Origin: Candidatus Zhuqueibacterota bacterium | Lineage (GTDB): Bacteria > Zhuqueibacterota > Zhuqueibacteria > Oleimicrobiales > Geothermoviventaceae | Assembly: GCA_034506315.1 (NCBI GenBank) | Contig: JAPDPT010000054.1 | Location: 1 to 25,250 of the forward strand | Length of the DNA: 25,250 bases | Direction: 5' to 3' | Shown here: in pieces, positions 3,147 through 25,196 of the stretch | Position numbering within the stretch: position 1 is the stretch's first letter | How the letters are laid out: each line of letters begins with the position of its first letter | The notes under the pieces: model-generated | Told to the model about the DNA's origin: nothing | The model's input: the letters and a program-made list of their open reading frames with translations, nothing else | Databases searched by the model: none | Translations under genes and position numbers: made by a program

Positions 3147-5192
3147 TCACGGCCCTTCGTACCAGCCAGGTAGAGATACCGTCGCCTGATAGTTCGAGTA
3201 GTTGTACAGAGGATTCCTTACCGGTCGGTACAGCCTTCCGGACCGGGGGTTATCGTCCTGCGTGTACACCCAGAGATCGTAGGGATCCCAGACGACGATT
3301 TCGTCTCGGCAATCGCCAGTGATGTCCAGCACGGCATTACACATCTCAGGGTGACCGTCGTCCGGAAAAACGACCACCCTGCGTCCCCAGCCGTCGAACA
3401 TCCCTCCGTGCTCCGTACTCGCCGAGAGCAAGAAGTACTCCTCGCCGTCGCCTTTCCAATTTACAGGCAGGCACATGCTTCCGTGTTGAACCGGCTCGAA
3501 CTCGCAATACACATTTCCGTTTGCGTCGTAGAGATGTACGATGCCCTGATTGCCCCAGAAGTTGATGCTCACGGTTTCCAGCCCCGGAAGATCCGGTCGG
3601 AAGTTAGCGACGGCCGGGTTCTGCACATGGCCCAGCCGATGGTGCCTCAGGATTTGGCCGTCGAGGCTGAGGAACAGCATCCCTTCGTCGCTGGCGGCAT
3701 TGAGAACGACAGGACTCAAGTCCTCTCGGAGGCGCACAATGGCCACGCCATCGGCATGGTCGTGCAAGATCGGATCGAGGATCCACATCACCGAGCCGTC
3801 GTGGTCCAACAGGCTATATCCGATGGCGACTTCGTCCCGGCCGTCATTGTCAATGTCCGCAGCATAGGGGTAATGTCCGGTATTGCACGCGTGGTGCCAA
3901 AGAACCTCCAGGCGATCGTTCAGTGCCCAGACGTTCCAGTATCGGTCCTTGATCAGAATGTCTCTCGGGTGCCCCGTGCCGCGCAGATCACAGAAGAAGA
4001 GACAGTCTCCGAGGATGCGCGGGAAACGTGCTCCTGGATCTGGAGAGAGTGGTGTTGGGGCGCGCAGCTTTGGGCGCCCGGTCCTACCATCCGCCACCAC
4101 GATCTCCGAGTTCATGCAGTAGACGACCTCGTTCTGTCCATCCGCATCGAGGTCGTGGATCTGGAACGCGACGTCGTTGGTCAGGTGATCCTTCCAGGGA
4201 TCGGGTTCGCCAATCTGCCACAAGATGCGGCCGTCAAAGGTCATAGCCGTCAAGCAGCTCAGCTCGCTGTAGCGGTCCTTCGGTCCGTGGTGGACGACCT
4301 GTCCGATGAGCAAATCCGTTTGCCCGTCACCGTCGAGATCGCCGAAGCGGAGATTTCTCCCCACGCCCAGGCCGTCGATCTGCAGTTTGCGCCACACAAT
4401 GGGGCGCGGGTTGACGGCCCGGAGGCGTTGTTCCTGGCGCAGGAGTTCGGCCCGGCGTCTGAGGTAAGCCCGTCGGGCGACGTAATTCATGGTTACCTTT
4501 ACGCGCTCATAGCGGGCGGGCACGTCGGCGAGCAGACCTACTCGACCGTGGGTGTAGGTCGTATCCTCTGCTTCCAGGGTCAGCTTCCGATTGAAGCGGG
4601 CGCGGATGCGCGAACCCTGGAGCTTGACCTCAGCCTCCAGCCGGTCTCCGGGTTTCCAATCAATGGTGCCCGAAGCGAGGATTCGTTCGGCAGGCCTGTG
4701 GAAACCGACCTCGTGCCGGACGACCTTCAGGTGCGCGATCGATCCATCCACTCCGAAGAAATAGTAACAGCGATCATTCTGGTAGCGGAACACAACCCCG
4801 CAGAGTCCGGTGTCCGACAACGGGCTAAAGGTGACGCGAAGGATGTAGTTCTGCCAGAGCGTGTCGCCCGAGACGAGGATGGGATGGGTATAGGTCCGGT
4901 GATTCGTGTGGGTCTGGACCAGCACCTTGCCCCCGCCTTCCTTGCCGATAACGCGCCAGGCCCTCTGAGAAGCGGTCTCTGGGGTAAATGTCGAGACTTC
5001 CCATCCGTGAACGGGGGCCGCCTCGCGGAAATAATGGTACTCGAGGTGCGCGCCAAGCGGGGGCAGTAGCGGACCACTTGGAAACTCCGCAAAATCTTCG
5101 TCGATCAGCACTTCTTGTCGTGTCGGCGCGCACGCAGTGAGAGCCAGAATGGTGAAGAGCAAGATTCCTTGTCCTTGGCCCCTTCGGAACAT
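3147..5192 (-). CDS. Secreted lipoprotein with FG-GAP/VCBS-like beta-propeller repeats and an N-terminal beta-sandwich region (681 aa); possible glycan-active or adhesion protein
   Basis: I placed the start at ATG 5192, which has GGGAGG 7 nt upstream. This gives MFRRGQGQGILLFTILALTAC, a signal peptide with an LTAC lipobox. There are at least five repeats of the DxDxDG-x-D/E-hydrophobic-G type (FGDLDGDGQTDLLIG, HDLDADGQNEVVY, DIDNDGRDEVAIG, DITGDCRDEIVVWD, CDLRGTGHPRDILI), typical of FG-GAP propellers. The ORF-track start at 5393 would add 67 residues ahead of the signal peptide. Confidence 0.7.
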   Translation of the reverse strand: MFRRGQGQGILLFTILALTACAPTRQEVLIDEDFAEFPSGPLLPPLGAHLEYHYFREAAPVHGWEVSTFTPETASQRAWRVIGKEGGGKVLVQTHTNHRTYTHPILVSGDTLWQNYILRVTFSPLSDTGLCGVVFRYQNDRCYYFFGVDGSIAHLKVVRHEVGFHRPAERILASGTIDWKPGDRLEAEVKLQGSRIRARFNRKLTLEAEDTTYTHGRVGLLADVPARYERVKVTMNYVARRAYLRRRAELLRQEQRLRAVNPRPIVWRKLQIDGLGVGRNLRFGDLDGDGQTDLLIGQVVHHGPKDRYSELSCLTAMTFDGRILWQIGEPDPWKDHLTNDVAFQIHDLDADGQNEVVYCMNSEIVVADGRTGRPKLRAPTPLSPDPGARFPRILGDCLFFCDLRGTGHPRDILIKDRYWNVWALNDRLEVLWHHACNTGHYPYAADIDNDGRDEVAIGYSLLDHDGSVMWILDPILHDHADGVAIVRLREDLSPVVLNAASDEGMLFLSLDGQILRHHRLGHVQNPAVANFRPDLPGLETVSINFWGNQGIVHLYDANGNVYCEFEPVQHGSMCLPVNWKGDGEEYFLLSASTEHGGMFDGWGRRVVVFPDDGHPEMCNAVLDITGDCRDEIVVWDPYDLWVYTQDDNPRSGRLYRPVRNPLYNYSNYQATVSLPGWYEGP

Positions 5193-5425
5193 GGATGCCT
5201 CCCCTTCGTGCCCGATGATCCCGCTGCGCGAGCGAAATTGCAGAGCCCCCGCCAATTCCCAAAGCGAATTTTCCCGTAAGGGGAAGTTCCCATTTCCATG
5301 GCCGAGGCCTTTCAGTGCTGTTTCGGGGGATAGCGGTACGCGCAGCAGTGGGGCAGGTCCTTGAAGACCCCGTTGCCTACGACCTGGGATCACGGAGCGG
5401 GGGTAGGAGCAAGCGGGAAAACGGC

Positions 5426-5646: not shown

Positions 5647-6636
5647 ATGATGTGGTGGTCTATCATTGCCATACTTGCCGCGGTCGGGGTCGGATTCGCA
5701 GCCCTGGAGCTGCGTTTTCGTCGCCCCGATCAGCTGGTTCTCTACGACGCACATGGGGAGGTGCGTGCGCGGACGGGCCGGTTCTACCCCCGCCACCTCA
5801 GCCTCTGCTTGCCGTACCGGGTCCAAACCATCGTCACGGAGGTGGAGGCCGAGGCCAAGGGCCGGTTGGGCCTCCGCGTTCAGGTGACAGCCACGGCCGG
5901 ACCTGACCCAAAGAACCTCGCACAACTCGTGCGGGTTGGTGGGTGGAGCCGCGAAGCCGTCGAGCGTGCCTGCAAGGAGTTGGAGCTCGTCATGCACTCG
6001 CTGGTTCGCTCCTACACCGAACAGAAAGCGCTCGAAGAGATCCGTACAGATGAAATGATGCAGTGGCTGCGCTCGGGTCTGGAGCAGGAGGCCCCCAAGT
6101 TGGGCCTGGAGATCGTATCGGCCAGTGTGCAGTCCATTGAGCCTCGGGATCGGGAAATTGCCGAAGTGATCCAGCAACGAGAGGCTGCTCGAATCCGCAA
6201 GCAGACCGAGATTGTGAATCAGCAAGCCCGGGTGGCGGCCATGCAGGCCAAGCTGGAAGCAGACGAGCGAATCGCCCGGTCAGAGCACGAGCTGCAGCTC
6301 GTCAAGCTGGCGCTGCGAAAGGAGGAGGAGCTTCGAGAGGCGGAGCTGGCGCGCTTCCGGCTCGAGCAAGATCTCGAACAGCGACGGGCGCAGCTGGCCC
6401 TTGACCAGCAGGAAATCGAGCTCCTCGCCCGTAACCCTGAAGTGCTCCTCTTGACCCCCCAGCTGGCGCGTCTGGCCGAGGCCAGCCAGGGACTACGGAA
6501 TGCCCGGACCATTGTTTCGCTTTCGCCGAACAGCCTGCCAGAGGATTCGCCCCTGGCAAAGAACGTCGTCCGCCTCCTGGAGCGCCTCCTGAGCCGTGCG
6601 GCGGCCAGCGGCGGTCAGGAATCCCAGCAGACGTGA
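5647..6636 (+). CDS. SPFH/band-7 family membrane protein (flotillin/prohibitin-like), 329 aa
   Basis: ATG(ATG) at 5647 is preceded by GGTGGAGGAG. There is an N-terminal TM helix (WWSIIAILAAVGVGFAALEL). The SPFH core follows, and then a long Glu/Ala/Arg/Leu-rich coiled-coil (QQREAARIRKQTE...EEELREAELARFRLEQDLEQRRAQL), which is typical of flotillin-like proteins. Confidence 0.85.
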   Translation: MMWWSIIAILAAVGVGFAALELRFRRPDQLVLYDAHGEVRARTGRFYPRHLSLCLPYRVQTIVTEVEAEAKGRLGLRVQVTATAGPDPKNLAQLVRVGGWSREAVERACKELELVMHSLVRSYTEQKALEEIRTDEMMQWLRSGLEQEAPKLGLEIVSASVQSIEPRDREIAEVIQQREAARIRKQTEIVNQQARVAAMQAKLEADERIARSEHELQLVKLALRKEEELREAELARFRLEQDLEQRRAQLALDQQEIELLARNPEVLLLTPQLARLAEASQGLRNARTIVSLSPNSLPEDSPLAKNVVRLLERLLSRAAASGGQESQQT

Positions 6637-6667: not shown

Positions 6668-9600
6668 GTGCGCGCGGTGCAGGACCCATTCCGACTCAAG
6701 CCCGTAGAGACTGCCGAGGTCTCCGAGATCAGCGAGCTCACGGCGAGCGCTCAGGTGCGCCGTGAGGACCGCGTCAACTTCCACATCGGGAACCCTGTGC
6801 AGGACCCCCGCCTCTTGTCGATGTACCAGAGGTTAATCCTCGGACTTGCACCCGATAACGGCGCGACGGATCCCAGGGAGTGGATTGAGGAACACGTGGA
6901 AAGCCGGCACCAGGCGGAGCGAGTCCACTGGTTCTTGGGCCTGGTCGAAAAAAGCGTCGCCTACCTGCCGCGCGGTGGGTTCGGACGCAGGGATCCCGGC
7001 TCAGTGGCGCGCAAGGTCCACGCCCTCTTTACGTCCGAAGCGGAGGAGCCGCTGGACTACGACCTCGGCGACAAATCGGGAAAGCGAGAGATCACTTTTG
7101 TCAGTGGGGGAAAGCGGGAAGCCGTCCGGCTGCTTCATTATGCCCTCTCTCGTCAGCTCGAGGTGGCTTCCTTTGCCACGCTGCTCTTCGGCTTCCCCCT
7201 CCCACAAATCCTGCGAGCGTCAGCCCGCGGAGACATAATTCCGTTGCCCGATCAGGAGGGGGATGTCTTACGACTTCTTCGTGAGCGACTCCGCTCGTTT
7301 CCGGACCAACCCCATTTTCTCCTCCTGGGTAGGGTCCCGACGGAAGGCCTGCGGCGAGCCATCCGCAGAGCCTGCCTGGAAGGATCCCTCTTTGTAGTGG
7401 AAGCCAACGGGGCTGCCAATCACCTCTCCCTCGCTCGCGAGGCGGGACTGGCTAATCGTGTGCTCCGCATCCTGGACGCGGCGGATCTGCGCGCAGACCT
7501 GCAGGGACTTGCGGTGGCCGTGGTGCTGGGGCGCGCCGACTACATTGACGCCATCGAAAAAGCCCATTTCGAGCTCAAGGGCACACCCGCGGCTCCGGAG
7601 CTCGAGTTTCTTGGCTACCTGCTGAACCAACCCCTCGACACCAGCGCTTCGGCAACACCCGTGGATGGCTTCGATCTCTCTGCCGCCGTGCCCGAAGGTC
7701 CCCGCTCTTCGTACGAAGGGTTGCGGGGTACAATGGCCCGTGTCCCTTCTGCGGCCACCAGGGTGGCACGACACGTAGAGGAAGTGATCGAGAGACTGCC
7801 AGCCTCCTGTACCTCCGCGCTGCGCGCCAGGCACTGGACCGTGCGGGCCCCCGTAGCCATAGGTGAGCTCCACGTGTCGTTTCCCTCCGCAAGTGTGACG
7901 GACGCCTTCCCCGCGCTGCAACCGACGGAGATTATCGAGCAGCTCTTTACGCGCTACGCCGATCCCTTATGGCGCGCCCAGGTCGTCGAATCGTTCCTGA
8001 GCGCCTTTCTTCAACTCCACCCCGAATATGAACCGGAGGCATGCGCCGTTGTGGGCGGATCGGCGCGGACGGCTCTCGCCCTGCTGGGTCGCTACTGCGG
8101 CCTTGAGGAGGCCATCGTTCCCGACCTGAGCTGGACCTATCATCACTGCTTTCCGCGGGTGACGGCAGTCCCCCTGACCGCCGATTTCCAGCTGGACGTG
8201 GAGGGCATTCTGCGGGAGGTAGATGGGCGACTGGAAGCCGATCGTTCCTGGGCGGAACGCGGGGCGGTGGTGATCAACTCGCCGCACAACGCCTCGGGGC
8301 AAATCTTCCATCAGGGTGACCTTGTCCGCCTGCTCCGTGAACTGCTGGGTCGGGGGGTATGGGTTGTGGACGATCTATCGTACAAGGGGGTGGCGCCTCA
8401 GCCAGGCTTTGTGCGGACCTACTCGTTGCGGGAAATCGCCACTGCGATGGTGCGGCAGGGAGAGCTCCGCCGGGAACACCTGCGCAAGCTGATCACAGTC
8501 CATTCGCTTTCCAAGACGGACTGCTTTGCCGGCGGCCGCCTGGCAGTGGTAGAAATCCTCGACCCGGCCCTCCGATCGCGATTTCGCCGTCTCCTTCAGG
8601 ACATCGCCCCGAACCTGGTTTCCTGCCTCCTGGCATATCTTTTCTACCGCAACGGTGAGAGAATACGGGCATTTTGGGAGCTGCGCAACCGGGTCCTATG
8701 GGAAAGACTGGAAGCGTTGGATCTTGCGTGCGCGGAGGTCCCCGCCGAGCGCAATCCATATAGCGCCAAGCTGGTGCGACCCACCGGGTCGATGTATCCG
8801 CGATTGGAAATCGAAAGACTCCCCGAAGGTGTATCGCTGGTGCGCCTTGCGACGGGCCTGGCAGTACGGGGAATTGGGTTGGTTCCGTTGTCTGCTTTTG
8901 CGCGAACCGCCTCGGGCTGGGAACTGGCCCGCCGGTCGTTCCGGCTCACTCTGGGTGGCGACGACCCTGCGCCCGTCCTGGCCCGGAAGATCCGGCGCGT
9001 CCTGATCGATCTGAATCGGCTAATTGCCCAGGAGGCAGAAGGCTTTCGGAGAAGAACCCTGCCACGAGCGCGTGCGGAGGAGGGCCTCGGTGAGTACAGC
9101 CGCTCGTGGGCAAACCAGTGGGCGGCTCTGAAGGACGAGCTGGAAAGCCGGTCGCGACGGTGGCTGCGCGAGTTTGCGCGCCAACTTCCTGGTACCGATG
9201 AAACCGCTGAAGACGCCTTCGTAGCAGAGTACCTTCCGGAACGCCTCGCCTGGATTCGCCAGCGCCTTGTGGACCGCGCGCGACTTGCGGACGAGATTCT
9301 GTGGCTTGCGCAATCCGACCGGGACGGACTTCTGCGTGGCTTCGCTCACGAGATCCGCTTTCCCGAGCTCGACGCGCGACGCGCGCAATTCCGCTCCCGC
9401 CTCTTTGACCGCACCGTGCACCCCACCCAGATGTACGCGCTGGAGGTGGAGCGGCTCACCAATCGCCTTGTGGATGAGCTGCGAAGGAAAGGTAAGGTCA
9501 GCCAGGAGACCCTGGAGAAGCTGGCCGCCAGCCTGGCTGCCGAGCACCTCGGCCTGAATGTGGCGATTCGCTCCGCCGAGGAGTCCTGGGAGCTTGTGGT

Positions 9601-12289
9601 GGACCTCGACGCGCTGGCCGAGGCGGAACAGGCCGCCCTATTCTGGCACGGAGTGGATCTACCCCTGGTACTCTCGTACTGGGGGGACTGGGACGGAAGC
9701 ACACGTCCGTCAGGGCAAGGGCATCGGTTGGTTGCGGGCGCCCTCCTGGAGAACGTGAGTCGGCTGCGAAGGCTGGTCAAACGTCTGCGCTCCCTCGGAG
9801 TACCGCTGGACCTTCCCGCAGAGCTGGAAGCCGAGTTACAAGGGCTTGAGCGCAAGAACCGGGAGTTTTGGAAGCTCCTCGACGAGATCACCAAGCTTAC
9901 CTCCCAGCTGGAGCAGCGCTACCGGAGTGTGCTGCCCATTGGGAGCCGGACCAGCCCCTGGCGACGGCTCGGAATGCGGCTGGGAGTAGCCAAGGACCCG
10001 ATGACCGTTCTGTGGCTCCACAACGACCGCCTCGAGAAGCGGATGTTGCGGCTGCGAGCGCGTCGGCGGGAAAGCCTGAAAACGTACTTCGAGCTCAATG
10101 AGGAGCTTCACCGCACCCTGCAGAAGCAGCTGGAGCGGATCCGGGAGCATCTTGACCAGCGGCCTGTGGCTGAGGAGATCGGTCACTACCGCAGCCTGCT
10201 CCGGAGATTCTTCCTGACCCCGCGCATTCACCAGCGGATGGTCCTGGCGGTCGACCAGTTCGCCGTGGACACCACGGTGCACAACATGGTTGAGATCAAC
10301 GCTCTGGCCGGAGCACACGGGTTCCCGGGTCTGGTCCTTGCGCTGCAAGTGAGCATGTCCACGGATCCTGAAGCGGTGATCGCTCTGGACCGGAAGCTGC
10401 GCGCCAAGTCGGAGGAATTGCTGCGCCGCCACGGAAAGCTCCCACTCCCCAGCATCTGGATTATCCCCCTTTTTGAGGACCTGGAGACCGTCCGCCAGCT
10501 GGAGGGTTACCTCGACCGTCTGTGGGAGTACGCGGTGCAGAGTCGAAGGCTCGGTCAAAGCCCGGCCGACAGGTTCGCCGAGCTCACGTGTGAGCTTTTT
10601 GTGGCCGGATCGGACCTGAGCCAGCAGGTGAGTCAGCCTGCGGGGTACGCCCTCTACCGCGAAGCCAAGTATCGCGCCATCCGCTGGTTTGCGGAGAAAG
10701 AGCTCGTGGGCCGCGTCCGAATCAAGCTGGGCAGCGGAGAGCCTGCGCAGCGGCAGGGCGGTTATTTCGATCCGACCGTAGGGCAGCCCGTGGCAAGGAC
10801 TGAAGGCCAGGCCTACGCCCTGCTTTCCCGCAACTTCAACGAGGTGGAACGCCAGATGCTCCGCCGGGCGACCGAACCTCTACGAGGCGCCATGGCAGGG
10901 GGGGAGTTCCGGACGTTCCAGAGCAATCTCTTCGAGCGTTTGCGTCTGGCCAGTGCTGAGGAAAGAGCCCAGTTCTTCTTTCACGTCCTCAGCAGTCAGA
11001 GGCAATACGAGGGGGAGCTCCAGCGTGCAGCGTCGTCCCTTGTGGAGACGCGGTTTCTCCACCGGGAGCGCGGCCTGCAGGAGTTGGAGGCGCTTACGCT
11101 CGGCCGGAGGGACGAACATCTTCGCCGGTTCCTGGAGGAGCTACCGCAGCACTTCCGCCAGATCCTCTACGGCAGCGAAGAGGATATCATTGGGCTGCAC
11201 GTCATCTCGTACTTCGTTTCGCGGACCATGCCCCCGCTGCGGGACCGGCCTGTGGTCCGTCCCGGGAGAGAGCCATTAGGTGGCCGCGGGCGCGAGATCG
11301 TCGGTCGCATTGCTGAGACGTTGCCCCTCGCCAAGCACGGAAGCCTGTTGCGGGCGATTGGCCACAACCGTGCCCAGACCATGATCCTTGGGGTGAACCA
11401 GCTCACTACGGGCCTGTTCCGCTGCCTCAAAGCCTTCATTGAGAGCTTCGACAACCCGGCGGAGGGGTGGCGGGTGGTCGAGGACAGCATCCTACCCCAC
11501 CTTCCCGTTTACGACATCCTGCACACCCTCCGCCTCTACCATGATCTGGATCTCGAGTACGTCCGGAGGCTCGAAGGCGTCTTCCCCCCGGGCAATTCGG
11601 CCCTGCTGGCCCTGCGCGAGGACAACGATGCCATCCGGGAGTTCATTCCTTCGTTTCAGCGGGAACTGCTGCGGCGCTGCGGTCTGGAAAGCGAGGGCTT
11701 TTTCACGGATGGCCACGTCCGTCGGGATCTGCTCCCCTTGCTTAGGCCTGAGCTGGTGGTCCTCCTTCAGCCAGATCTCTTTAACACGGATTATAACCGA
11801 TTGGTGGACCGGCTCGGCGAGGTCGTGGACAGCGACTGGGGTAGGGAGGTAGGCCGGCTCCTCGAGAAGAGGGACAAAGTACGGATGTGGCGCGCCCGTA
11901 TCTGGGACATCATTGAGGGGCCAGTGCGCTCGCAAGTGGAGAGTTTCGTCCAGTTGGCCCAGGCGGTCAATCGACTCACCGCGGGCGGCAGTGTCTGGGA
12001 TTCGCCGTTTGCCGCCAATCCCGGTGAGGTTCTGAGGCTCGGGGCCCAGGTGGCGAGTCTGTTGCGCGGAGCTGCCGACGACATGATGCGGCAGTTCCTC
12101 ATCGCCGCGGTGCAGTACCTGACGCAGCTTCCGCAAGGGGCCGCAGGTGTACCCATCGAGGTGATCCGGGCGCTGCGCAATGTCGAACGCATTGTGATGA
12201 TCGAGGAGCAGGCGCTCAACGAGAAGCAGCTGGCTTTGGTTCGCTTCTGCACTTTGCAGATTGCACGGCTGTGCGGGGAGAACGGCTGA
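6668..12289 (+). CDS. Giant 1873-aa multidomain protein. It has a degenerate aminotransferase-like domain, then an intact class I/II (AspAT-like) PLP aminotransferase domain, then a divergent phosphoenolpyruvate carboxylase (PEPC)-like domain.
   Basis: A single uninterrupted frame of 5622 nt with very high GC3. The GTG start at 6668 has GAGGGGA upstream. Aminotransferase motifs are listed under the sub-features. PEPC motifs occur in the canonical order and spacing and are also listed under the sub-features. Stop is TGA at 12287-12289. Confidence 0.85.
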   Translation: MRAVQDPFRLKPVETAEVSEISELTASAQVRREDRVNFHIGNPVQDPRLLSMYQRLILGLAPDNGATDPREWIEEHVESRHQAERVHWFLGLVEKSVAYLPRGGFGRRDPGSVARKVHALFTSEAEEPLDYDLGDKSGKREITFVSGGKREAVRLLHYALSRQLEVASFATLLFGFPLPQILRASARGDIIPLPDQEGDVLRLLRERLRSFPDQPHFLLLGRVPTEGLRRAIRRACLEGSLFVVEANGAANHLSLAREAGLANRVLRILDAADLRADLQGLAVAVVLGRADYIDAIEKAHFELKGTPAAPELEFLGYLLNQPLDTSASATPVDGFDLSAAVPEGPRSSYEGLRGTMARVPSAATRVARHVEEVIERLPASCTSALRARHWTVRAPVAIGELHVSFPSASVTDAFPALQPTEIIEQLFTRYADPLWRAQVVESFLSAFLQLHPEYEPEACAVVGGSARTALALLGRYCGLEEAIVPDLSWTYHHCFPRVTAVPLTADFQLDVEGILREVDGRLEADRSWAERGAVVINSPHNASGQIFHQGDLVRLLRELLGRGVWVVDDLSYKGVAPQPGFVRTYSLREIATAMVRQGELRREHLRKLITVHSLSKTDCFAGGRLAVVEILDPALRSRFRRLLQDIAPNLVSCLLAYLFYRNGERIRAFWELRNRVLWERLEALDLACAEVPAERNPYSAKLVRPTGSMYPRLEIERLPEGVSLVRLATGLAVRGIGLVPLSAFARTASGWELARRSFRLTLGGDDPAPVLARKIRRVLIDLNRLIAQEAEGFRRRTLPRARAEEGLGEYSRSWANQWAALKDELESRSRRWLREFARQLPGTDETAEDAFVAEYLPERLAWIRQRLVDRARLADEILWLAQSDRDGLLRGFAHEIRFPELDARRAQFRSRLFDRTVHPTQMYALEVERLTNRLVDELRRKGKVSQETLEKLAASLAAEHLGLNVAIRSAEESWELVVDLDALAEAEQAALFWHGVDLPLVLSYWGDWDGSTRPSGQGHRLVAGALLENVSRLRRLVKRLRSLGVPLDLPAELEAELQGLERKNREFWKLLDEITKLTSQLEQRYRSVLPIGSRTSPWRRLGMRLGVAKDPMTVLWLHNDRLEKRMLRLRARRRESLKTYFELNEELHRTLQKQLERIREHLDQRPVAEEIGHYRSLLRRFFLTPRIHQRMVLAVDQFAVDTTVHNMVEINALAGAHGFPGLVLALQVSMSTDPEAVIALDRKLRAKSEELLRRHGKLPLPSIWIIPLFEDLETVRQLEGYLDRLWEYAVQSRRLGQSPADRFAELTCELFVAGSDLSQQVSQPAGYALYREAKYRAIRWFAEKELVGRVRIKLGSGEPAQRQGGYFDPTVGQPVARTEGQAYALLSRNFNEVERQMLRRATEPLRGAMAGGEFRTFQSNLFERLRLASAEERAQFFFHVLSSQRQYEGELQRAASSLVETRFLHRERGLQELEALTLGRRDEHLRRFLEELPQHFRQILYGSEEDIIGLHVISYFVSRTMPPLRDRPVVRPGREPLGGRGREIVGRIAETLPLAKHGSLLRAIGHNRAQTMILGVNQLTTGLFRCLKAFIESFDNPAEGWRVVEDSILPHLPVYDILHTLRLYHDLDLEYVRRLEGVFPPGNSALLALREDNDAIREFIPSFQRELLRRCGLESEGFFTDGHVRRDLLPLLRPELVVLLQPDLFNTDYNRLVDRLGEVVDSDWGREVGRLLEKRDKVRMWRARIWDIIEGPVRSQVESFVQLAQAVNRLTAGGSVWDSPFAANPGEVLRLGAQVASLLRGAADDMMRQFLIAAVQYLTQLPQGAAGVPIEVIRALRNVERIVMIEEQALNEKQLALVRFCTLQIARLCGENG
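6758..7700 (+). other. Domain: degenerate N-terminal aminotransferase-like copy (about aa 30-340) lacking the Schiff-base lysine
   Basis: It has the N-terminal NFHIGNPVQDP motif (like INLGIGxP) and the ITFVSGGKREAVRLLHYAL motif (like the VTNGaqEAL small-domain start). At the position that my by-eye alignment equates with the SxSK lysine, the sequence is LRILDAADLRADLQGLAVAVV, so Lys is replaced by Ala (codons 7472-7486). The NPTG-like Asn and the DEVY-like Asp are not recognisable. Confidence 0.45.
7950..9070 (+). other. Domain: intact fold-type I (class I/II) PLP-dependent aminotransferase (about aa 430-800)
   Basis: The motifs match the canonical aminotransferase class I/II order: AVVGGSARTALALLGRY, EEAIVPDLSWTYHHCF, VVINSPHNASGQIF (8275-8300, NPTG-like Asn), VVDDLSYKG (8364-8390, cofactor-binding Asp), TVHSLSKTDCFAGGRLAVVE (Lys codon 8513-8515), and a C-terminal ARRSFRLTLGG Arg that should bind the substrate carboxylate. 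Confidence 0.7.
9070..12289 (+). other. Domain: divergent phosphoenolpyruvate carboxylase-like region (about aa 800-1873)
   Basis: By-eye collinearity with E. coli-type PEPC landmarks. VLTAHPTE corresponds to RTVHPTQ (His codon 9419-9421). LLKEAGI...PLFETLDDL...IDWYRG corresponds to LLRRHGKL...IPLFEDLETV...LDRLWEY (10462-10492). MIGYSDSAKDAG...ASWAQYQAQ corresponds to FVAGSDLSQQVSQPAGYALYREAKYRA (10598-10660). LFHGRGGSIGRGGAP corresponds to KLGSGEPAQRQGGYFDP (10722-10775). LRAIPWIFAWTQNR corresponds to LRAIGHNRAQTMILGVNQLTTG (11346-11415). The C-terminal ...MRNTG corresponds to ...CGENG. Confidence 0.6.
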
Positions 12290-12315
12290 ACTGCGCTTCG
12301 CGGGGCGGAATTCGT

Positions 12316-12380
12316 GGGGTGTGCCACGCTCAAACCCCGAGGCGGGGGCGGCGGGTACTCGCGTAGCTAACGCACACCCC
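12316..12380 (+). terminator. Stable branched stem-loop downstream of the giant ORF. A 9-bp perfect inverted repeat (GGGGTGTGC ... GCACACCCC) encloses smaller GC hairpins. No U-tract.
   Basis: The arms are at 12316-12324 and 12372-12380. The inner hairpin CCCCG-AGG-CGGGG is at ~12335-12347. The element begins 27 nt after the stop at 12289. Confidence 0.3.
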
Positions 12381-12599
12381 TCGCACGCCTCTCCGAAATC
12401 CCTGCGGAAGATTCTACCTACGTCATCGGTCTATCTGGGACCGGAGAACTCGCTATTGGAACTCCCCCCGGTGCGTTGTACCTTACGGAGGAGGGGTAGA
12501 AGATCGGATGCTGCGCGGACGGAGCTGCGCGAGAGATTCGAGCTCGCACGCGCTAACGAGAGCGAACCTGGAAGATTCGAGGGAACACAGAGGAAGCCA

Positions 12600-13283
12600 G
12601 TGCGGACGATTCTGTTCGACATTGACGGGACCCTCCTGTTCTCTGGAGGTGCAGGAAGAAGGGCGATGACCCTGGCCTTCCGCGATGTGTACGGCCTGGA
12701 AGACGGGTTCGCCGGGATCTCGATGTCGGGTAAGACCGACGCTCAGATCCTCCGGGAAGCCCTGCTCAGAGCGGGATTGCCCCTCGAGGAGCGCTCCGCT
12801 GCCCTTTTCCGCCAGCGATACTTCGAGCACCTCCGGTCCACAATGAACGACCAGGCCCCGGGGAAACGGCTTGTTCCGGGCGTGAACCAGCTCCTTGAGG
12901 CTCTCAGGGTGCGCGGGGGCGTCTTGCTGGGACTTTTGACCGGGAACTGGAGGGAAAGCGCCTACATTAAGCTGAGGCGATTCGGGATCGACCATTTCTT
13001 CCCCTTCGGCGCCTTCGCAGACGATTCTGAAGATCGCAATGCGCTCCTGCCTGTTGCCATCAGGCGTGCGGAAAGTCTCGCCAGGCGTCAGTTGGAGGCA
13101 GCGGACGTCTGGATCGTCGGAGACACACCGAGAGACGTCGAATGCGGAAGTGTTCACGGTGTGAAGGTGTTGGGCGTGGCATCGGGCGAGTACGGGCCCG
13201 AGGTGCTTGCCGCGGCTGGCGCTACTGCAGTGGTAAGAGATTTTAGGGACGTGCAGGCTGTCCTGGGGATTCTGCTGGCCTGA
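12600..13283 (+). CDS. HAD-superfamily hydrolase (phosphoglycolate phosphatase / beta-phosphoglucomutase-like subfamily)
   Basis: I chose GTG 12600 (VRTILFDIDGTLLFSGG) as the start because HAD enzymes begin at the DxDGT nucleophile motif. AGGAAG lies just upstream with a short spacer. Motif II (LLTGNWRES), motif III Lys and the motif IV VWIVGDTPRDVECG are present. The ORF-track start at 12261 gives a low-complexity N-extension that overlaps the giant ORF, and I rejected it. Confidence 0.65.
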   Translation: MRTILFDIDGTLLFSGGAGRRAMTLAFRDVYGLEDGFAGISMSGKTDAQILREALLRAGLPLEERSAALFRQRYFEHLRSTMNDQAPGKRLVPGVNQLLEALRVRGGVLLGLLTGNWRESAYIKLRRFGIDHFFPFGAFADDSEDRNALLPVAIRRAESLARRQLEAADVWIVGDTPRDVECGSVHGVKVLGVASGEYGPEVLAAAGATAVVRDFRDVQAVLGILLA

Positions 13284-15102: not shown

Positions 15103-17304
15103 ATGAGAAGAGGCGCGCGAATTCTTTGGTTGCCCATGCTGTGGATCGTAGCAGGATCGACCACAGCGGGAGTCCTCACGCGTCCAGAGATTGAGCGCAA
15201 GATCGACGATCTTCTGGCACGGATGACGGTCGAGGAGAAGGTGGGGCAGCTTGTTCAGTTCAGCTACCCGGATGTTCAGAACCACGAGGAGCTGATCCGC
15301 CAGGGGAGGGTTGGCTCGTTCCTGAACGTCCGCGATGTGGAAACGGCCAACCGGCTCCAACGGGTCGCGGTGCACGAATCGCGCCTGGGAATTCCCCTCA
15401 TCTTTGGAAATGACGTGATCCACGGTTGCCGGACCATCTTTCCTATCCCCCTGGCGGAGGCTGCAACCTGGAATCCGGAGCTTGTCCGCAGGTGTGCGCG
15501 CATCGCTGCCCGCGAAGCTGCCAGTATCGGCACCCACTGGACTTTCGCGCCGATGGTGGATATCGCCCGTGACCCCCGGTGGGGGAGAATTGCTGAGGGG
15601 GCTGGCGAGGATCCCTATCTCGGATCCGTAATGGCGCGGGCGAAGGTAGAGGGCTTCCAGGGCGACGACCTCTCCCACCCGGAAACCATCGCGGCTTGCC
15701 CGAAACACTACGTTGCCTACGGCGCGGCCGTCGGCGGCCGTGACTACAACACCGTGGATCTCTCGGAGTGGGAGCTCCGGGAGGTGTACCTTCCACCTTT
15801 CCGGGCTGCCATCGAGGCGGGGGCCGCCACCATCATGAGCGCTTTCAACGATCTGTGCGGCGTTCCAGCCTCCGCCAACTCCTTCACGCTCACGCGCATT
15901 CTCCGGGAGGAATGGGGATTTGACGGCTTCGTAGTGAGCGATTGGGATGCCATCGCCGAGCTGGTGAGCCACGGCCTGGCCGCTTCAGTAGAGGAGGCTG
16001 CTCAGCTCGCCCTTCAAGCCGGCGTGGATATGGACATGATGGGCTACGCCTATCACCGCTATCTGGCCGATCTTGTCCAGAGCGGCCGGGTGCCGATGGA
16101 GTGGCTCGATCGATCCGTCCGGCGGGTGCTGCGAGTCAAGTACCTCCTTGGGCTCTTCGAGAGGCCGTTCGTCGACCCGAGACGTCAACGGAGCGTAATT
16201 CTGGCGCCAGAGCATTTGGAGGTCGCCCTTCAGGCTGCACGCGAGGCCATTGTGCTGCTGAAGAACGAAGGCCATGTGCTCCCGCTTCCGAAGAGCTCCG
16301 GCACAGTCGCTGTACTGGGTCCCTTGGCCAACAACCGTGCCGATCTCCTCGGCTCGTGGTCGATGGAGGGAAGGCCCGAGGACGTGGTTACGGTCCTGGA
16401 CGCGATTCGCGAGAAGATAGGGACGAACCGCGTGCTCTTTGCACCCGGCTGCGGCATCTCCGACACCTCGCGCGCAGGGATCGCCGAGGCGGTGGCTCTA
16501 GCCCGGAAGGCGACCGTGGCCATAGTGGTCGTGGGGGAGAGTGCGAACATGAGCGGCGAGGGGGCAAGCAGGGCCCATCTGGACCTGCCCGGAGTTCAGC
16601 TCGAATTGGTGAAAAGCGTCTGGCAAGCCGGCGTCCCGACTGTGGTCGTGCTGGTAAATGGGAGGCCTCTGGCCATCCCCTGGATCGCTGAGCACATCCC
16701 CGCTATTGTGGAGAGTTGGCAATTGGGGGTGCAACACGGGAGAGCTGTGGCCGACGTTCTATTCGGTGATTTCAATCCATGTGGCAAGCTCCCCGCGACT
16801 TTCCCTCGCTCCGTCGGCCAGGTACCCATCTATTACAACCACAAGAACACCGGGCGGCCTCCACAGGCCTCCGAAAGATACTGCTCTAAGTACATCGATG
16901 AGGATTGGAACCCCCTGTATCCCTTTGGTTTCGGCCTAAGCTACACCACGTTTCGCTTCGAGAACCTTCGGCTCAGCGAGAGCCGCATCAGGCCCTATGG
17001 AAAGGTGACGGTGACCGTAGACGTCGTCAACGTGGGGTCTGTGGCGGGTCATGAAGTTGCGCAGCTCTACATTCGTGACGTCGCGGCCAGCCGCACGCGG
17101 CCTGTAAAGGAGCTGCGAGGTTTCCGCAAGGTCTTCCTCCGTCCCGGCGAGAGGGCAACCGTCTGCTTTGAGCTCGGGCCGCACGAGCTGGGGTTCTACA
17201 ATCGGCACATGGAATGGGTGGTCGAGCCCGGTGAGTTCCGCGTTTGGGTAGGCCCGAACTCCGTTGAAGGTCTCGAAGCGCGGTTCGAGGTAGTCACACC
17301 GTAG
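15103..17304 (+). CDS. bglX: Periplasmic/secreted glycoside hydrolase family 3 beta-glucosidase (BglX-like), 733 aa
   Basis: ATG 15103 has AGGAGAAGGAG upstream. Signal peptide MRRGARILWLPMLWIVAGSTTAGV. The GH3 N-terminal TIM-barrel motifs are present (GNDVIHGCRTIFP, KHYVAYGAAVGGRDY, GFDGFVVSDWDA with the nucleophile Asp), as is the C-terminal alpha/beta domain with its FnIII-like tail. Confidence 0.9.
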   Translation: MRRGARILWLPMLWIVAGSTTAGVLTRPEIERKIDDLLARMTVEEKVGQLVQFSYPDVQNHEELIRQGRVGSFLNVRDVETANRLQRVAVHESRLGIPLIFGNDVIHGCRTIFPIPLAEAATWNPELVRRCARIAAREAASIGTHWTFAPMVDIARDPRWGRIAEGAGEDPYLGSVMARAKVEGFQGDDLSHPETIAACPKHYVAYGAAVGGRDYNTVDLSEWELREVYLPPFRAAIEAGAATIMSAFNDLCGVPASANSFTLTRILREEWGFDGFVVSDWDAIAELVSHGLAASVEEAAQLALQAGVDMDMMGYAYHRYLADLVQSGRVPMEWLDRSVRRVLRVKYLLGLFERPFVDPRRQRSVILAPEHLEVALQAAREAIVLLKNEGHVLPLPKSSGTVAVLGPLANNRADLLGSWSMEGRPEDVVTVLDAIREKIGTNRVLFAPGCGISDTSRAGIAEAVALARKATVAIVVVGESANMSGEGASRAHLDLPGVQLELVKSVWQAGVPTVVVLVNGRPLAIPWIAEHIPAIVESWQLGVQHGRAVADVLFGDFNPCGKLPATFPRSVGQVPIYYNHKNTGRPPQASERYCSKYIDEDWNPLYPFGFGLSYTTFRFENLRLSESRIRPYGKVTVTVDVVNVGSVAGHEVAQLYIRDVAASRTRPVKELRGFRKVFLRPGERATVCFELGPHELGFYNRHMEWVVEPGEFRVWVGPNSVEGLEARFEVVTP

Positions 17305-21837: not shown

Positions 21838-21842
21838 GGCGC

Positions 21843-21966
21843 AGGTCTTCGGGGCCAGGTGGAAGTCCTGACCGGTGGTGAAAGCCCACGAGTCCACTGC
21901 AGGCGGGGTGGACAGAGCCGGTGGAATTCCGGCGCCGACGGTGAAAGTCCGGAGGGGAGAAGACCG
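21843..21966 (+). promoter_or_regulatory. FMN riboswitch (RFN element) aptamer
   Basis: CTTCGGGGCCAGGTGGAAGTCCTGACCGGTGGTGAAAGCCCACGAG...GGTGGAATTCCGGCGCCGACGGTGAAAGTCCGGAGGGGAGAAGAC matches the RFN consensus (CTTCGGGGCAGGGTGAAATTCCCGACCGGCGGTA...AGCCCGCGAGC...GGTGGATTC...CCGACAGTGAAAGTCTGGATGGGAGAAG). The P1 stem pairs GTCTTC (21845-21850) with GAAGAC (21959-21964). Confidence 0.9.
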
Positions 21967-21999
21967 TAGCATGAGCCGCCTCTCCCATAGGAGCTGCAC

Positions 22000-22050: not shown

Positions 22051-23163
22051 GTGATGCCGGGACGAGAGGAGGATTTCCTCCGAAGAACGATGCAGCTAGC
22101 GAACAAGGGCAGGGGAAGGGTATCACCCAATCCTCTCGTCGGAGCCGTGGTAGTGCGCGATGGGCAGGTGGTGGGCGAAGGCTACCACGCTCAATACGGC
22201 GGTCCTCACGCGGAGGTGGTCGCCCTGGAGAGGGCTGGTGAACGCGCCCGCGGTGCGACCCTGTATGTCAATCTGGAGCCCTGTTGCCATTACGGAAAGA
22301 CGCCCCCGTGCACGGACGCGATCATTCGCGCCGGGATCCGCAAGGTCGTCGTGGCTCTGGTGGACCCCAACCCGCTGGTCAAGGGTCAGGGGATTGAGGC
22401 GTTGCGAAAGGCTGGGATCGAAGTCGAGCTCCGGGATCAGCTTGCCGCGGCGCAACGGCTCAACCGCGGCTACCTGAAATGGATACGAACCGGCCTTCCA
22501 TATGTCACCGCTAAGGCCGCCATTACGCTGGACGGAAAGGTGGCTACGGTCGCGCGGGAATCGAAATGGATTACCTCGGAATCGGCTCGGCGGCGCGCGC
22601 ACCGTCTGCGCGCCGAACACGACGCCGTACTGGTGGGCAGGGGCACACTGTTGGCCGACGATCCCGAGCTGACGGTGCGCTACGTTCGGGGACCCAACCC
22701 CTGGCGTGTCATCCTGGACGAAGATCTCGGAGCCAGCCAAGGGTGCCGGGCCGTAGAGCTCGGGCGGCGCGATGGCAAGACGATCCTCTTTGCCTCGCGT
22801 TCCAAAGTGGATGCCGCGAGCAGCCGACCCTTCCAAGCCGAGGGCATCCACGTCGAGCTCGTCGACTCCCGCGAGAACGGATTCCTCGATCTCAAGCAGG
22901 TTCTGGAGACATTGGGAAAAAGGGGCGTTACTTCCGTTCTCGTCGAGGGAGGGAGCAGCATTTTGACCTCCTTTCTCCGTGAGCAGCTCGTGGACGAACT
23001 CGTGCTGTTCCTTGCCCCGAAGCTGCTGGGCAGCGGCCTCAGTCTGGCGGGAGAGCTCGGCATTTCCAGGTTAGACCAGGCGTTGCAATTCTCGTTCAGC
23101 CGGATCGAACGCCTCGGCCCGGATTTATGCCTGTGGCTGGTTCCTGCGTGGGCGAAGGACTGA
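22051..23163 (+). CDS. ribD: Bifunctional riboflavin biosynthesis protein RibD (diaminohydroxyphosphoribosylaminopyrimidine deaminase / 5-amino-6-(5-phosphoribosylamino)uracil reductase)
   Basis: It has the N-terminal CMP/dCMP-type deaminase zinc motifs (HAEVVAL, PCCHYGKTPPCTDAII) and a C-terminal RibD reductase domain. It starts at the tandem ATG ATG at 22051. Confidence 0.9.
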   Translation: MMPGREEDFLRRTMQLANKGRGRVSPNPLVGAVVVRDGQVVGEGYHAQYGGPHAEVVALERAGERARGATLYVNLEPCCHYGKTPPCTDAIIRAGIRKVVVALVDPNPLVKGQGIEALRKAGIEVELRDQLAAAQRLNRGYLKWIRTGLPYVTAKAAITLDGKVATVARESKWITSESARRRAHRLRAEHDAVLVGRGTLLADDPELTVRYVRGPNPWRVILDEDLGASQGCRAVELGRRDGKTILFASRSKVDAASSRPFQAEGIHVELVDSRENGFLDLKQVLETLGKRGVTSVLVEGGSSILTSFLREQLVDELVLFLAPKLLGSGLSLAGELGISRLDQALQFSFSRIERLGPDLCLWLVPAWAKD

Positions 23164-23166
23164 TCG

Positions 23167-23832
23167 ATGTTCACCGGTCTGATTCGGGAAGTAGGCACCG
23201 TTGCCAGCCTCAGATTCGAGGCCAAGGGCGCTGAATTGACCATCCAGTGCCGGACGATTCTGGACGGCCTGAGAGTAGGAGACAGCGTGGCCGTCGATGG
23301 CGCTTGCCTTACAGTGGCGCGCACGGCTCCGCAGGGTTTCGTGGCGGACGTGGTAGCAGAGACGTTGGAGCGGACCATCATCCGCCGCTACACCCCGGGG
23401 ACTCCGGTCAATCTGGAGCCAGCCCTCCGTCTCGGAGAGCCTCTCGGCGGCCACATGGTCCTGGGGCACGTGGATGGCGTGGCCGAAATCCTTGAATTCG
23501 TACCCGAGGGTGAGGGCAGACGAATGTGGCTGCGAGCTCCAGCCCACCTTCGCCGGTACATTGCGGAGAAAGGATCGGTTGCCATTAACGGAGTGAGTCT
23601 GACCGTCGCTTCGGTCCGGGGCGGCGACTTCAGCGTGGCGCTCATCCCCTTCACTCTCCAGCAGACGAATCTGGGCCGCCTCGTGCCGGGAGCACAGGTG
23701 AACCTGGAAGTGGATGTGATCGCCCGTTACGTCGAGCGCCTGGTGCAGTTCCGCGCCGCCATGGGCAACGGGATCACCTGGGAGCGCTTGGAAGAACTGG
23801 GATTTGCCGCGAGCGGATCCCTTGGCTCTTGA
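23167..23832 (+). CDS. ribE: Riboflavin synthase (alpha subunit)
   Basis: [12 protein letters not shown]... is followed by two lumazine-binding repeats ([13 protein letters not shown] and [12 protein letters not shown]). It starts 4 nt after the ribD stop. Confidence 0.9.
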
Positions 23833-23873
23833 AAAGAGCATGCTCGGACAAAGCTGTTTGGGAGATCCGGGCC

Positions 23874-25196
23874 ATGCGGGGAACGGCGATGGACGGCTTT
23901 AACACAATCGAAGAAGCGATCGAGGACATTCGACAGGGTAAAATCGTAATTGTCGTCGACGACGAAGATCGCGAGAACGAAGGCGATTTCATTATGGCCG
24001 CAGAGAAGGTCACGCCCGAGGCCATCAACTTCATGGCCAAGTACGGGCGGGGCCTGATCTGTGTGGCGATGACGGCCGAGCGCCTCAAGGAACTGGATCT
24101 CCATCCCATGGTCACCGAGAACACGGCTCATCTGGGTACTCAGTTCACGGTGAGCGTGGACGCTCGGCACGGCACGACGACGGGGATTTCGGCTTTCGAC
24201 CGGGCTACCACAATCCGCGCCCTTGTGGACCCACGAACGCGTCCAGAGGACCTGGCGCGACCTGGTCACGTTTTCCCGCTCCGCGCACGGGAGGGAGGAG
24301 TGCTCAATCGTGCCGGGCACACCGAGGCCGTGGTGGATCTTTGCCGTCTGGCTGGACTCTACCCGGCCGGCGTCTTGTGCGAGATCATGGACGAGGACGG
24401 CAGCATGGCCCGCGTCCCCCGGCTCATGGAGCTGGCCCACCAGTTCGGACTGAAGATCGTTACGGTGCGGGACCTGATCGAGTACCGGCGGCGCACCGAG
24501 AAGCTCGTTCGGTGCCTCGTCACCACGAACTTGCCTACCGCGTATGGCTCCTTCGTTCTGCACCTGTACGAAAGTGCCGTGGACGAGCACCACCACATCG
24601 CTCTGGTAAAGGGCGACGTGTCCACGCCTGAGCCGGTCCTGGTGCGGGTTCACAGCCAGTGCCTGACGGGCGACGTGTTCGGCTCCCTTCGTTGCGACTG
24701 CGGGGAACAATTGCACCGGGCCATGCAGATGATCGAACGAGAGGGGCGTGGTGTGCTCCTGTACATGCGGCAGGAGGGGCGAGGGATTGGGTTGGTCAAT
24801 AAGCTCCTTGCCTACCGGCTGCAGGATAAGGGCAAGGACACCGTAGAGGCAAACGAGGCTTTGGGGTTCGCCGCGGACCTTCGCGACTACGGAATTGGCG
24901 CACAGATTCTGTGTGACCTCGGTGTGCGCAAGATCCGTCTGATGACGAATAATCCACGGAAAATCGTCGGCCTCCAGGGATACGGGCTTGAAGTCGTGGA
25001 GCGGGTACCGATTGAGGTGCCGCCCAACAAGATCAATCTTCGATACCTGGAAACCAAGCGCGACAAGTTAGGCCACCTTATCCTGGAAAACGGTATTCCG
25101 AGAGATCTGCTGCGCGAGATCGCCGGGACAGATGGCTCGTCCCCCGACGAGGCGACGCTTAACCGACTTGCCGAGGAGTTGCAGCGGGCAAGATAG
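23874..25196 (+). CDS. ribBA: Bifunctional 3,4-dihydroxy-2-butanone-4-phosphate synthase / GTP cyclohydrolase II (RibBA)
   Basis: I chose ATG 23874, which has GGGAGAT upstream. ATG 23889 ([11 protein letters not shown]...) is the alternative. The DHBP synthase motifs are [17 protein letters not shown] and GLICVAMT. The GTP cyclohydrolase II zinc motif is [15 protein letters not shown]. The ORF-track TTG start at 23829 overlaps the ribE stop. Confidence 0.9.

Follow-up and report, generated by a model that had tools for sequence, protein, structure and literature searches.

A phosphoenolpyruvate carboxylase-fold domain distant from both known PEPC families and fused to aminotransferase-type domains in candidate division KSB1

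A review of phosphoenolpyruvate (PEP) carboxylases (PEPCs) separates only two sequence families, the bacterial/plant type and the archaeal type (PMC8100219). The bacterial/plant-type Ppc (PF00311) is represented by the structures 1FIY/1JQN from E. coli, 1JQO from maize, and 3ZGE from Flaveria. The archaeal-type PepcA (PF14010) is represented by 3ODM from Clostridium perfringens, and the type has been described as an active homotetrameric PEP carboxylase (PMC8100219). Here, we describe a PEPC-like domain of a large protein from a Candidatus Zhuqueibacterota bacterium. The window, which is the whole stretch of DNA that was analysed, comprises 25,250 nucleotides (nt) of contig JAPDPT010000054.1 (assembly GCA_034506315.1). 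The large protein is encoded by a single open reading frame (ORF) of 1,873 amino acids (aa) with a GTG start (6668..12289, + strand) and has three domains: a pseudo-aminotransferase domain, an aminotransferase domain, and the PEPC-like domain. The PEPC-like domain is recognised by the profiles and signatures of neither PEPC family, yet it shares the fold and the core residues of these enzymes.

The NCBI record for the large ORF is MDZ7374484.1, from a candidate division KSB1 metagenome-assembled genome. Its only name is [quoted passage not shown], and PEPC is not mentioned in the source names of the protein. Since the public annotation is that of an aminotransferase only, metabolic reconstructions of the host phyla miss the PEPC-like domain.

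Fold and distance from the two PEPC types

The PEPC-fold domain covers aa 845–1873 (9200..12286, +). An AlphaFold2 model of this region was built from 30 homologues, with a predicted local distance difference test score (pLDDT) of 82.2 and a predicted template modelling score of 0.84. The model predicts a TIM barrel with helical insertions and some 200 further aa that form a helical extension at the C-terminus. A Foldseek search of the model against the PDB showed that the best 28 matches were all PEP carboxylases of both types (E 5e-9 to 5e-6), and that the match ranked after them had an E-value of about 0.1. The C-terminal domain is thus predicted to have the PEPC fold, a TIM barrel with a helical shell. 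It was this fold comparison that bore out the PEPC domain call of an earlier note on this DNA.

Sequence searches showed a much greater distance. The Pfam scan of the 1,873-aa protein returned PF00155 alone (aa 446–687); neither PF00311 nor PF14010 was matched, PF00311 being searched up to E 1. The NCBIfam scan of the large protein gave weak aminotransferase models only. The search of the C-terminal 1,029 aa against the PDB with phmmer showed no PEPC signal. A profile of the family also found nothing significant in the PDB, where 3odm was below threshold (E 0.58), and when this profile was compared by hhalign with E. coli Ppc as a single sequence, only noise resulted. Home-made PEPC hidden Markov models (HMMs) scored family members barely above reversed decoys in hmmsearch; the bacterial/plant-type HMM, made from 11 sequences, gave a median of 4.9 bits. 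In a profile search of 1.84 billion representatives, 250 matches were obtained. All of the 150 that were listed belonged to the family, as members or fragments, and no family bridging to PEPC was seen among them.

Profile-profile alignment was used to compare the family with each PEPC type. The archaeal-type profile comprised 25 PEPCs, every one with PF14010, and the bacterial-type profile comprised 11 PEPCs (E. coli Ppc and ten diverse annotated or tblastn-defined ppc genes). Over the whole domain, hhalign gave E 0.038 (probability 1.4%) against the bacterial type and E 0.0081 (probability 4.9%) against the archaeal type. The control comparison of the archaeal with the bacterial type gave E 1.1e-5 (probability 81.5%). 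By these E-values, the two PEPC types are closer to one another than the family is to either. The real scores were 29–33, versus 14–21 for the reversed or column-shuffled controls. The alignment was collinear over ten signature motifs, including TxHPT, SWxGD, ISM, PLFE, GxSD, the Gly-rich loop, RP..R, LRAI, and LQxELLxR. The match became significant when barrel segments were aligned with a family alignment of 82 members recovered from GTDB genomes of Ignavibacteria, Calditrichota, Acidobacteriota, KSB1, and Chloroflexota (44–79% identity to the window protein). Against the bacterial/plant type, the β3–β5 segment gave E 2.9e-5 (74% probability) and the β5–β7 segment E 1e-3; against the archaeal type, the values were 1.5e-4 and 8.8e-5, respectively.

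The scores above the controls, the collinear motifs, and the specific fold match indicate that the likeness to PEPC is more than chance. Together with the model, they show residues ~845–1873 to be a genuine, deeply divergent member of the predicted PEP carboxylase fold. Beside the bacterial/plant (PF00311) and archaeal (PF14010) types, it represents a third lineage, and its predicted structure lies closest to that of the archaeal type.

Active-site residues and their conservation

The motif order of the PEPC-like domain is that of the bacterial/plant type. The equivalences to E. coli residues given below were drawn from profile alignments and strand order. TVHPTQ (aa 916–921; 9413..9430, +) is the counterpart of TAHPTE, and its H918 (codon CAC, 9419–9421), which the earlier note had already found conserved, corresponds to E. 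coli H138. After strand β2, WGDWDGSTRPSGQGH (9680..9724, +) is aligned by hhalign with the bacterial/plant-type SW(M/I)GGDRDGNP; in the profile alignment, SWMGGDRDGNP of E. coli pairs with SYWGDWDGSTRPSGQGH and ISMA pairs with VSMS. PLFED (10466..10480, +) is the counterpart of PLFE, in which E1270 corresponds to the metal ligand E506 and L1268 to L504. AGSDLSQQ (aa 1313–1320; 10604..10627, +) is the counterpart of GYSDSAKD. Its D1316 corresponds to the metal ligand D543, and Q1319 (codon CAG, 10622–10624) replaces K546. This replacement had been read from the sequence before, and the profile-profile alignment reproduced it. Hydrophobic residues occupy the positions of E. coli W248, L504, and M538, the last being F1311.

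The counterpart of the FHGRGGxxGRGG loop is RIKLGSGEPAQRQGG (10718..10762, +), which has the same length. The part of it described in the earlier note, KLGSGEPAQRQGG (aa 1353–1365; 10724..10762, +), is present; its coordinates had been given as 10722–10775, with a start out of frame and 13 nt too long. In this loop H579 is replaced by L1354 (Met or Leu in the family) and R581 by S1356, whereas R587 is kept as R1362, which agrees with the earlier reading that the His and the first Arg are not conserved. The family loop is K(L/M)GSGEPxQRQGG, so that only the second Arg of FHGRGGxxGRGG is retained. Near these sites no Lys, His, or Arg lies in register except K1353, which is one position ahead of the H579 equivalent.

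Further downstream, RTFQSN (10910..10927, +) is the likely counterpart of the bacterial/plant-type RVTEQGE and the archaeal-type TFTIQS; this pairing came from motif inspection, and hhalign gave no confident placement. RDRPVVR (11240..11260, +) is the counterpart of GSRPAKR, and its R1527 corresponds to E. coli R699. LRAIGHNRAQT (aa 1561–1571; 11348..11380, +) is the counterpart of LRAIPW...TQNR. The Arg of LRAI (11348..11359, +), reported earlier as present, is R1562 and corresponds to R713. The Arg of TQNR had also been reported as present. This did not hold: R1568 is Arg in only 20/82 sequences and Gln in 56/82, it lies opposite E. coli Q723 in the profile alignment, and E. coli R725 lies opposite the invariant Q1570. 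IPSFQRELLRR (11645..11677, +) is the counterpart of LNxLQxELLxR (hhalign segment D, E 0.0029). The protein ends with CGENG (12272–12286; stop codon 12287–12289), confirming that ENG stands in place of the C-terminal NTG. G1873 of GENG (aa 1870–1873; 12275..12286, +) corresponds to G883 of E. coli and G483 of the archaeal-type PEPC.

The counterpart of E. coli R396 is harder to place. The candidate is the invariant R1186 in TPRIHQ (10217..10234, +), which sits on the only predicted strand between β2 and β4 and pairs with R86, an invariant residue of archaeal-type PEPC (TLRVPNP). R1186 is not set opposite DIRQES by hhalign, and segment alignments put it at E. coli ~436–437. Low-stringency hhalign puts the R396 equivalent near LWLHNDR, whereas the strand order favours R1186. 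Relative to E. coli, therefore, H138, E506, D543, R587, R699, R713, and G883 are kept and K546, H579, and R581 are replaced. Among the canonical positions singled out in the earlier note, this leaves R396 ambiguous in the profile alignment.

The signatures of the bacterial/plant type gave the same picture. PROSITE signature 1 of this type is x-T-A-H-P-T-[EQ]-x(2)-R. The domain has R-T-V-H-P-T-Q-M-Y-A, in which His, Pro, Thr, and Gln are present, Ala is replaced by Val, and the trailing Arg is absent. Signature 2 is G-Y-S-D-S-x-K-D-x-G, where the domain has A-G-S-D-L-S-Q-Q-V-S, with the Asp kept and the Lys replaced by a family-invariant Gln. Compared with FHGRGGxxGRGG, the loop is equal in length and has the second Arg only.

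We considered whether the domain could be an ordinary divergent PEPC that had been misaligned, with Lys, His, and Arg really at the canonical positions, as the earlier note had allowed. The shared fold speaks for such an explanation, and nothing else was found in its favour. The profile alignments returned the same residue pairings, the loops are of E. coli length with no in-register Lys, His, or Arg nearby apart from K1353, and PF00311 and PF14010 remained unmatched. Since the alignment proved right, both Pfam PEPC models failed, and the distance is greater than that between the PEPC types (E 0.038/0.008 vs 1e-5), a normal PEPC was rejected and is now barely credible.

The kept residues are under strict constraint. 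H918, E1270, D1316, Q1319, R1362, R1527, R1562, and G1873 were found in 82/82 sequences, as were K1353, G1355, G1357, E1358, Q1361, and Q1363 of the loop, T1416, Q1418, and S1419 of RTFQSN, R1525 and R1531 of RDRPVVR, and the family-specific H1566 and Q1570. S1356, at the R581 position, was present in 73/82. In the 35 full-length members, L1268, F1311, W1005, D1007, W1008, D1009, G1010, R1013, Q1017, and G1018 were invariant. The residues common to both PEPC types, namely H918, E1270, D1316, R1362, R1562, and G1873, are thus all present, aligned, and 82/82. Across the ~1,000 residues of the domain, the mean column identity in the family alignment was 58%.

The lowest-confidence loops of the AlphaFold model are aa 1356–1365 (10736–10765), 1527–1538 (11246–11281), and 1558–1569 (11339–11374). 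These stretches correspond to three PEPC elements, the Gly-rich loop, the RP..R loop, and LRAI, which are mobile catalytic loops in PEPC crystal structures. This hints that the catalytic loops of the modelled domain may be mobile, as in PEPC.

The domain was also compared with the archaeal type, whose motif set comprises TQHPD, IPLFED, ARSD, GSxPFRG, PRAI, and the terminal Gly. The PEPC-like domain appears to share TxHP(T/D), IPLFED, A(G/R)SD, a single-Arg loop containing GS, (L/P)RAI, and the terminal Gly with this type, in whose alignment that Gly is invariant. Both also have Phe at the M538 position. Archaeal-type PEPCs themselves have Met at K546, Ile at H579, and Val/Met at R581, and keep only the second loop Arg. 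The two differ in other respects. Their identity is only ~16%, and the loop is GSAPFRGN in the archaeal type and GSGEPxQRQGG in the family. The archaeal type is a stand-alone protein of ~480–540 aa, whereas the PEPC-like domain has ~1,000 aa, large helical insertions, and a C-terminal extension of ~200 aa, and is always fused to two aminotransferase-type domains. With the bacterial/plant type, the domain shares SWxGD..., ISM, LQxELLxR, the N-terminal helical region, and the length of the catalytic loop. Unlike that type, it has Gln for K546, Leu/Met for H579, Ser for R581, an unconserved TQNR Arg, ENG for NTG, and the aminotransferase fusion.

These comparisons bear on the earlier suggestion of a homologue that is inactive or has an altered catalytic site. 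The altered site is supported and inactivity only poorly. A dead pseudoenzyme that serves the aminotransferase in regulation, ligand binding, or scaffolding would account for the loss of three residues counted as catalytic in the E. coli enzyme, and the large protein already contains one degenerate domain, with Arg for the Schiff-base Lys. However, the metal ligands, the catalytic His, the loop Arg, and the two phosphate-binding Arg residues are 82/82 across five or more phyla, which is unexpected for a mere binding module, and ~1,000 residues are conserved. The constraint on the retained catalytic residues and on their replacements argues against a relic. The archaeal-type PEPC, described as active, also lacks the three E. 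coli residues, which argues for an altered but functional site. We therefore regard a pseudoenzyme as improbable. Judged from its sequence, the domain is most likely a working, unannotated third PEPC-fold lineage and not a dead copy.

The fused aminotransferase, the SPFH partner, and the possible reaction

The middle domain of the large protein (aa ~411–795; 7898..9052, +) is a class I/II pyridoxal phosphate (PLP) aminotransferase (PF00155, E 2.6e-11, 43.8 bits versus a cut-off of 19.7). Its PLP-binding residues are intact and invariant in the 35 full-length members: N541, D569, Y572, S613-x-S615-K616 (8504–8515), R624, and R759. Among them are the Lys of the Schiff base, the Asp that faces the pyridine N, the Asn that faces O3′, and Arg residues for the PLP phosphate and the substrate carboxylate. 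The AlphaFold2 model of aa 1–865 (pLDDT 83.4) matched aspartate aminotransferase (AspAT), LysN, DapC, and ACC synthase in Foldseek at about E 1e-13. By sequence, the family profile placed aa ~411–795 closest to kynurenine, aromatic, and aspartate aminotransferases in the PDB.

The first domain (aa 1–325; 6668..7642, +) is a degenerate aminotransferase-like domain with a seven-strand β/α pattern in the model. It has SLAREA (R257) where the Schiff-base Lys of SLSK is expected, and the Asn and Asp positions are lost. It retains the N-terminal FHIGNP (6776–6796) and Y-x-PRGG (6962–6979), both of which are missing from the second domain. Its hhalign match to the true aminotransferase domain was weak but collinear (E 0.0054). 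Class I aminotransferases normally act as homodimers of ~400 aa. We infer that the degenerate and intact domains form a single-chain pseudo-dimer of a class I aminotransferase. The middle domain thus matches the fold and PLP residues of this class (AspAT, LysN, DapC, kynurenine aminotransferase; PF00155), but here the intact and degenerate copies lie in tandem on one chain and are followed by the PEPC-like domain.

Relatives of the large protein were found in 342 GTDB species genomes, including those of the cultured hosts Melioribacter roseus, Caldithrix abyssi, Stygiobacter electus, and Rosettibacter primus. The literature search found no publication on this family. Full-length homologues have 1,800–1,950 aa, and in 70/83 loci the gene was a single unbroken ORF of over 1,600 aa. 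The others were cut by contig ends, apart from three full-length ORFs that had only missed the Lys-motif pattern and one apparent split. The aminotransferase fusion is universal in the family. A natural split into an aminotransferase (601 aa) and a PEPC-like protein (1,162 aa) at L004 (5965–11486) was rejected, this being one gene with a frameshift from frame 1 to frame 3 within the aminotransferase domain at ~aa 680. Several PEPC-like proteins of 1,000–1,300 aa have no aminotransferase domain and may be similar assembly artefacts or gene-call fragments.

The only conserved neighbour of the large gene in the 83 loci is an SPFH gene. In the window, it encodes 329 aa directly upstream (5647..6636, +), with an N-terminal transmembrane helix, an SPFH/Band_7 domain, and a coiled coil. 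The Band_7 match (PF01145) had an E-value of 1.2e-8 and 35.7 bits against a cut-off of 23.6, and the NCBI name is SPFH domain-containing protein. A membrane-anchored SPFH gene was found directly upstream on the same strand in 72/83 related loci from several phyla.

We propose that the PEPC-like domain would be catalytically competent, bind Mg2+/Mn2+-PEP, and most likely convert PEP and bicarbonate to oxaloacetate, from which the fused aminotransferase would make aspartate. The overall reaction would be PEP + HCO3− + glutamate to aspartate + 2-oxoglutarate + Pi. The unstable oxaloacetate could be handed on within a single polypeptide, and the SPFH protein encoded upstream may anchor the enzyme to the membrane or organise it there. 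That the domain is catalytically competent and carboxylates PEP in this way is about an even call. In E. coli, mutagenesis showed that H138, H579, and R587 are important, as cited in PMC11832675. The catalytic His has been tied to the carboxylation-specific second partial reaction, according to the title of Terada and Izui 1991 cited there.

Several points weigh against PEP carboxylation. The importance of H579 for E. coli PEPC activity is itself one of them (Terada et al. 1991, as cited in PMC11832675). The loop of the family is not Gly-rich and contains invariant Glu and Gln (GSGEPxQRQGG). H1566, N1567, Q1570, and the WGDWDG..RPSGQGH loop are family-specific invariants without a PEPC counterpart. 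Both features could signal a different substrate or reaction. The domain is matched by neither PEPC Pfam model nor any NCBIfam model, and the whole-domain hhalign probabilities of 1.4% and 4.9% are low. The residue equivalences come from profile alignments and the order of strands, and the R396 counterpart is placed differently by hhalign, segment alignment, and strand order. A plain metabolic role leaves the conserved SPFH partner unexplained. Published reconstructions for M. roseus and C. abyssi name no PEPC but do include pyruvate carboxylase, PEP carboxykinase and/or malic enzyme (PMC3534657, PMC5317091), and with these other C3/C4 enzymes there is no obvious anaplerotic gap.

The main alternative is that the domain is an active enzyme with other chemistry, whose retained metal/phosphate site binds PEP or a related phosphorylated/2-oxo acid without carboxylation, the new specificity being set by the family-specific invariants. 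Options would be the dephosphorylation of PEP to enolpyruvate and pyruvate, from which the aminotransferase would make alanine, the decarboxylation of oxaloacetate after transamination of aspartate, or the use of another substrate. This explanation fits the fixed family-specific residues that replace the Gly-rich loop, K546, H579, and R581. It also fits the distance of the family from both PEPC types, greater than that between the types, the failure of every PEPC profile to recognise the domain, the other C3/C4 enzymes reported in cultured hosts (PMC3534657, PMC5317091), and the conserved SPFH neighbour, which is unusual for PEPC. Against it, all residues common to both carboxylase types are kept, including the carboxylation-linked His and the terminal Gly, and the substitutions fall at positions that are also variable in the archaeal-type PEPC. 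We consider it possible but doubtful. A more specific proposal is a new PEP-dependent enzyme that would perform non-carboxylating chemistry through its fixed Gln/Glu-rich loops, as one unit with the pseudo-dimeric aminotransferase and the SPFH scaffold; we hold this to be unlikely and offer it tentatively. If true, Ignavibacteria, Calditrichota, KSB1, Acidobacteriota, and Anaerolineae would possess a membrane-associated pathway not described before, leading from PEP to an amino acid or in the opposite direction.

A third fold-level relative of PEPC would widen the known sequence space of a carbon-fixing enzyme. Such a lineage would show which active-site residues are truly indispensable, and would offer a further candidate pathway, on a single polypeptide, that leads from PEP to aspartate. 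Because cultured hosts exist, the prediction is directly testable.

Other genes in the window

PADLOC gave no defence-system match for the large gene or the SPFH gene. Downstream, an ORF for a HAD-family hydrolase (12261–13283, +) overlaps the stop codon of the large gene. It showed weak matches to PhnX-like and phosphoglycolate phosphatase models. As its HAD domain begins only at aa ~114, translation probably starts downstream of the first codon of this ORF. This hydrolase was rejected as a partner, since it was found in only 4/83 related loci.

Unrelated carbohydrate-active neighbours lie at 3147–5393 (−), 15103–17304 (+), and 521–2980 (−). The neighbours include a FG-GAP/rhamnogalacturonan lyase-like gene, a GH3 β-glucosidase-type gene, and an ORF of 819 aa whose glucosamine-6-phosphate isomerase-like match fell below threshold. 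The window also contains MgtE and an M28 peptidase; none of the surrounding carbohydrate-active, MgtE, or M28 genes is conserved beside the family. A full-length flavin mononucleotide riboswitch (21841–21968, +; Rfam RF00050, 110 bits) was identified upstream of a riboflavin operon comprising ribD (22051–23163), riboflavin synthase (23167–23832), and ribBA (23829–25196).

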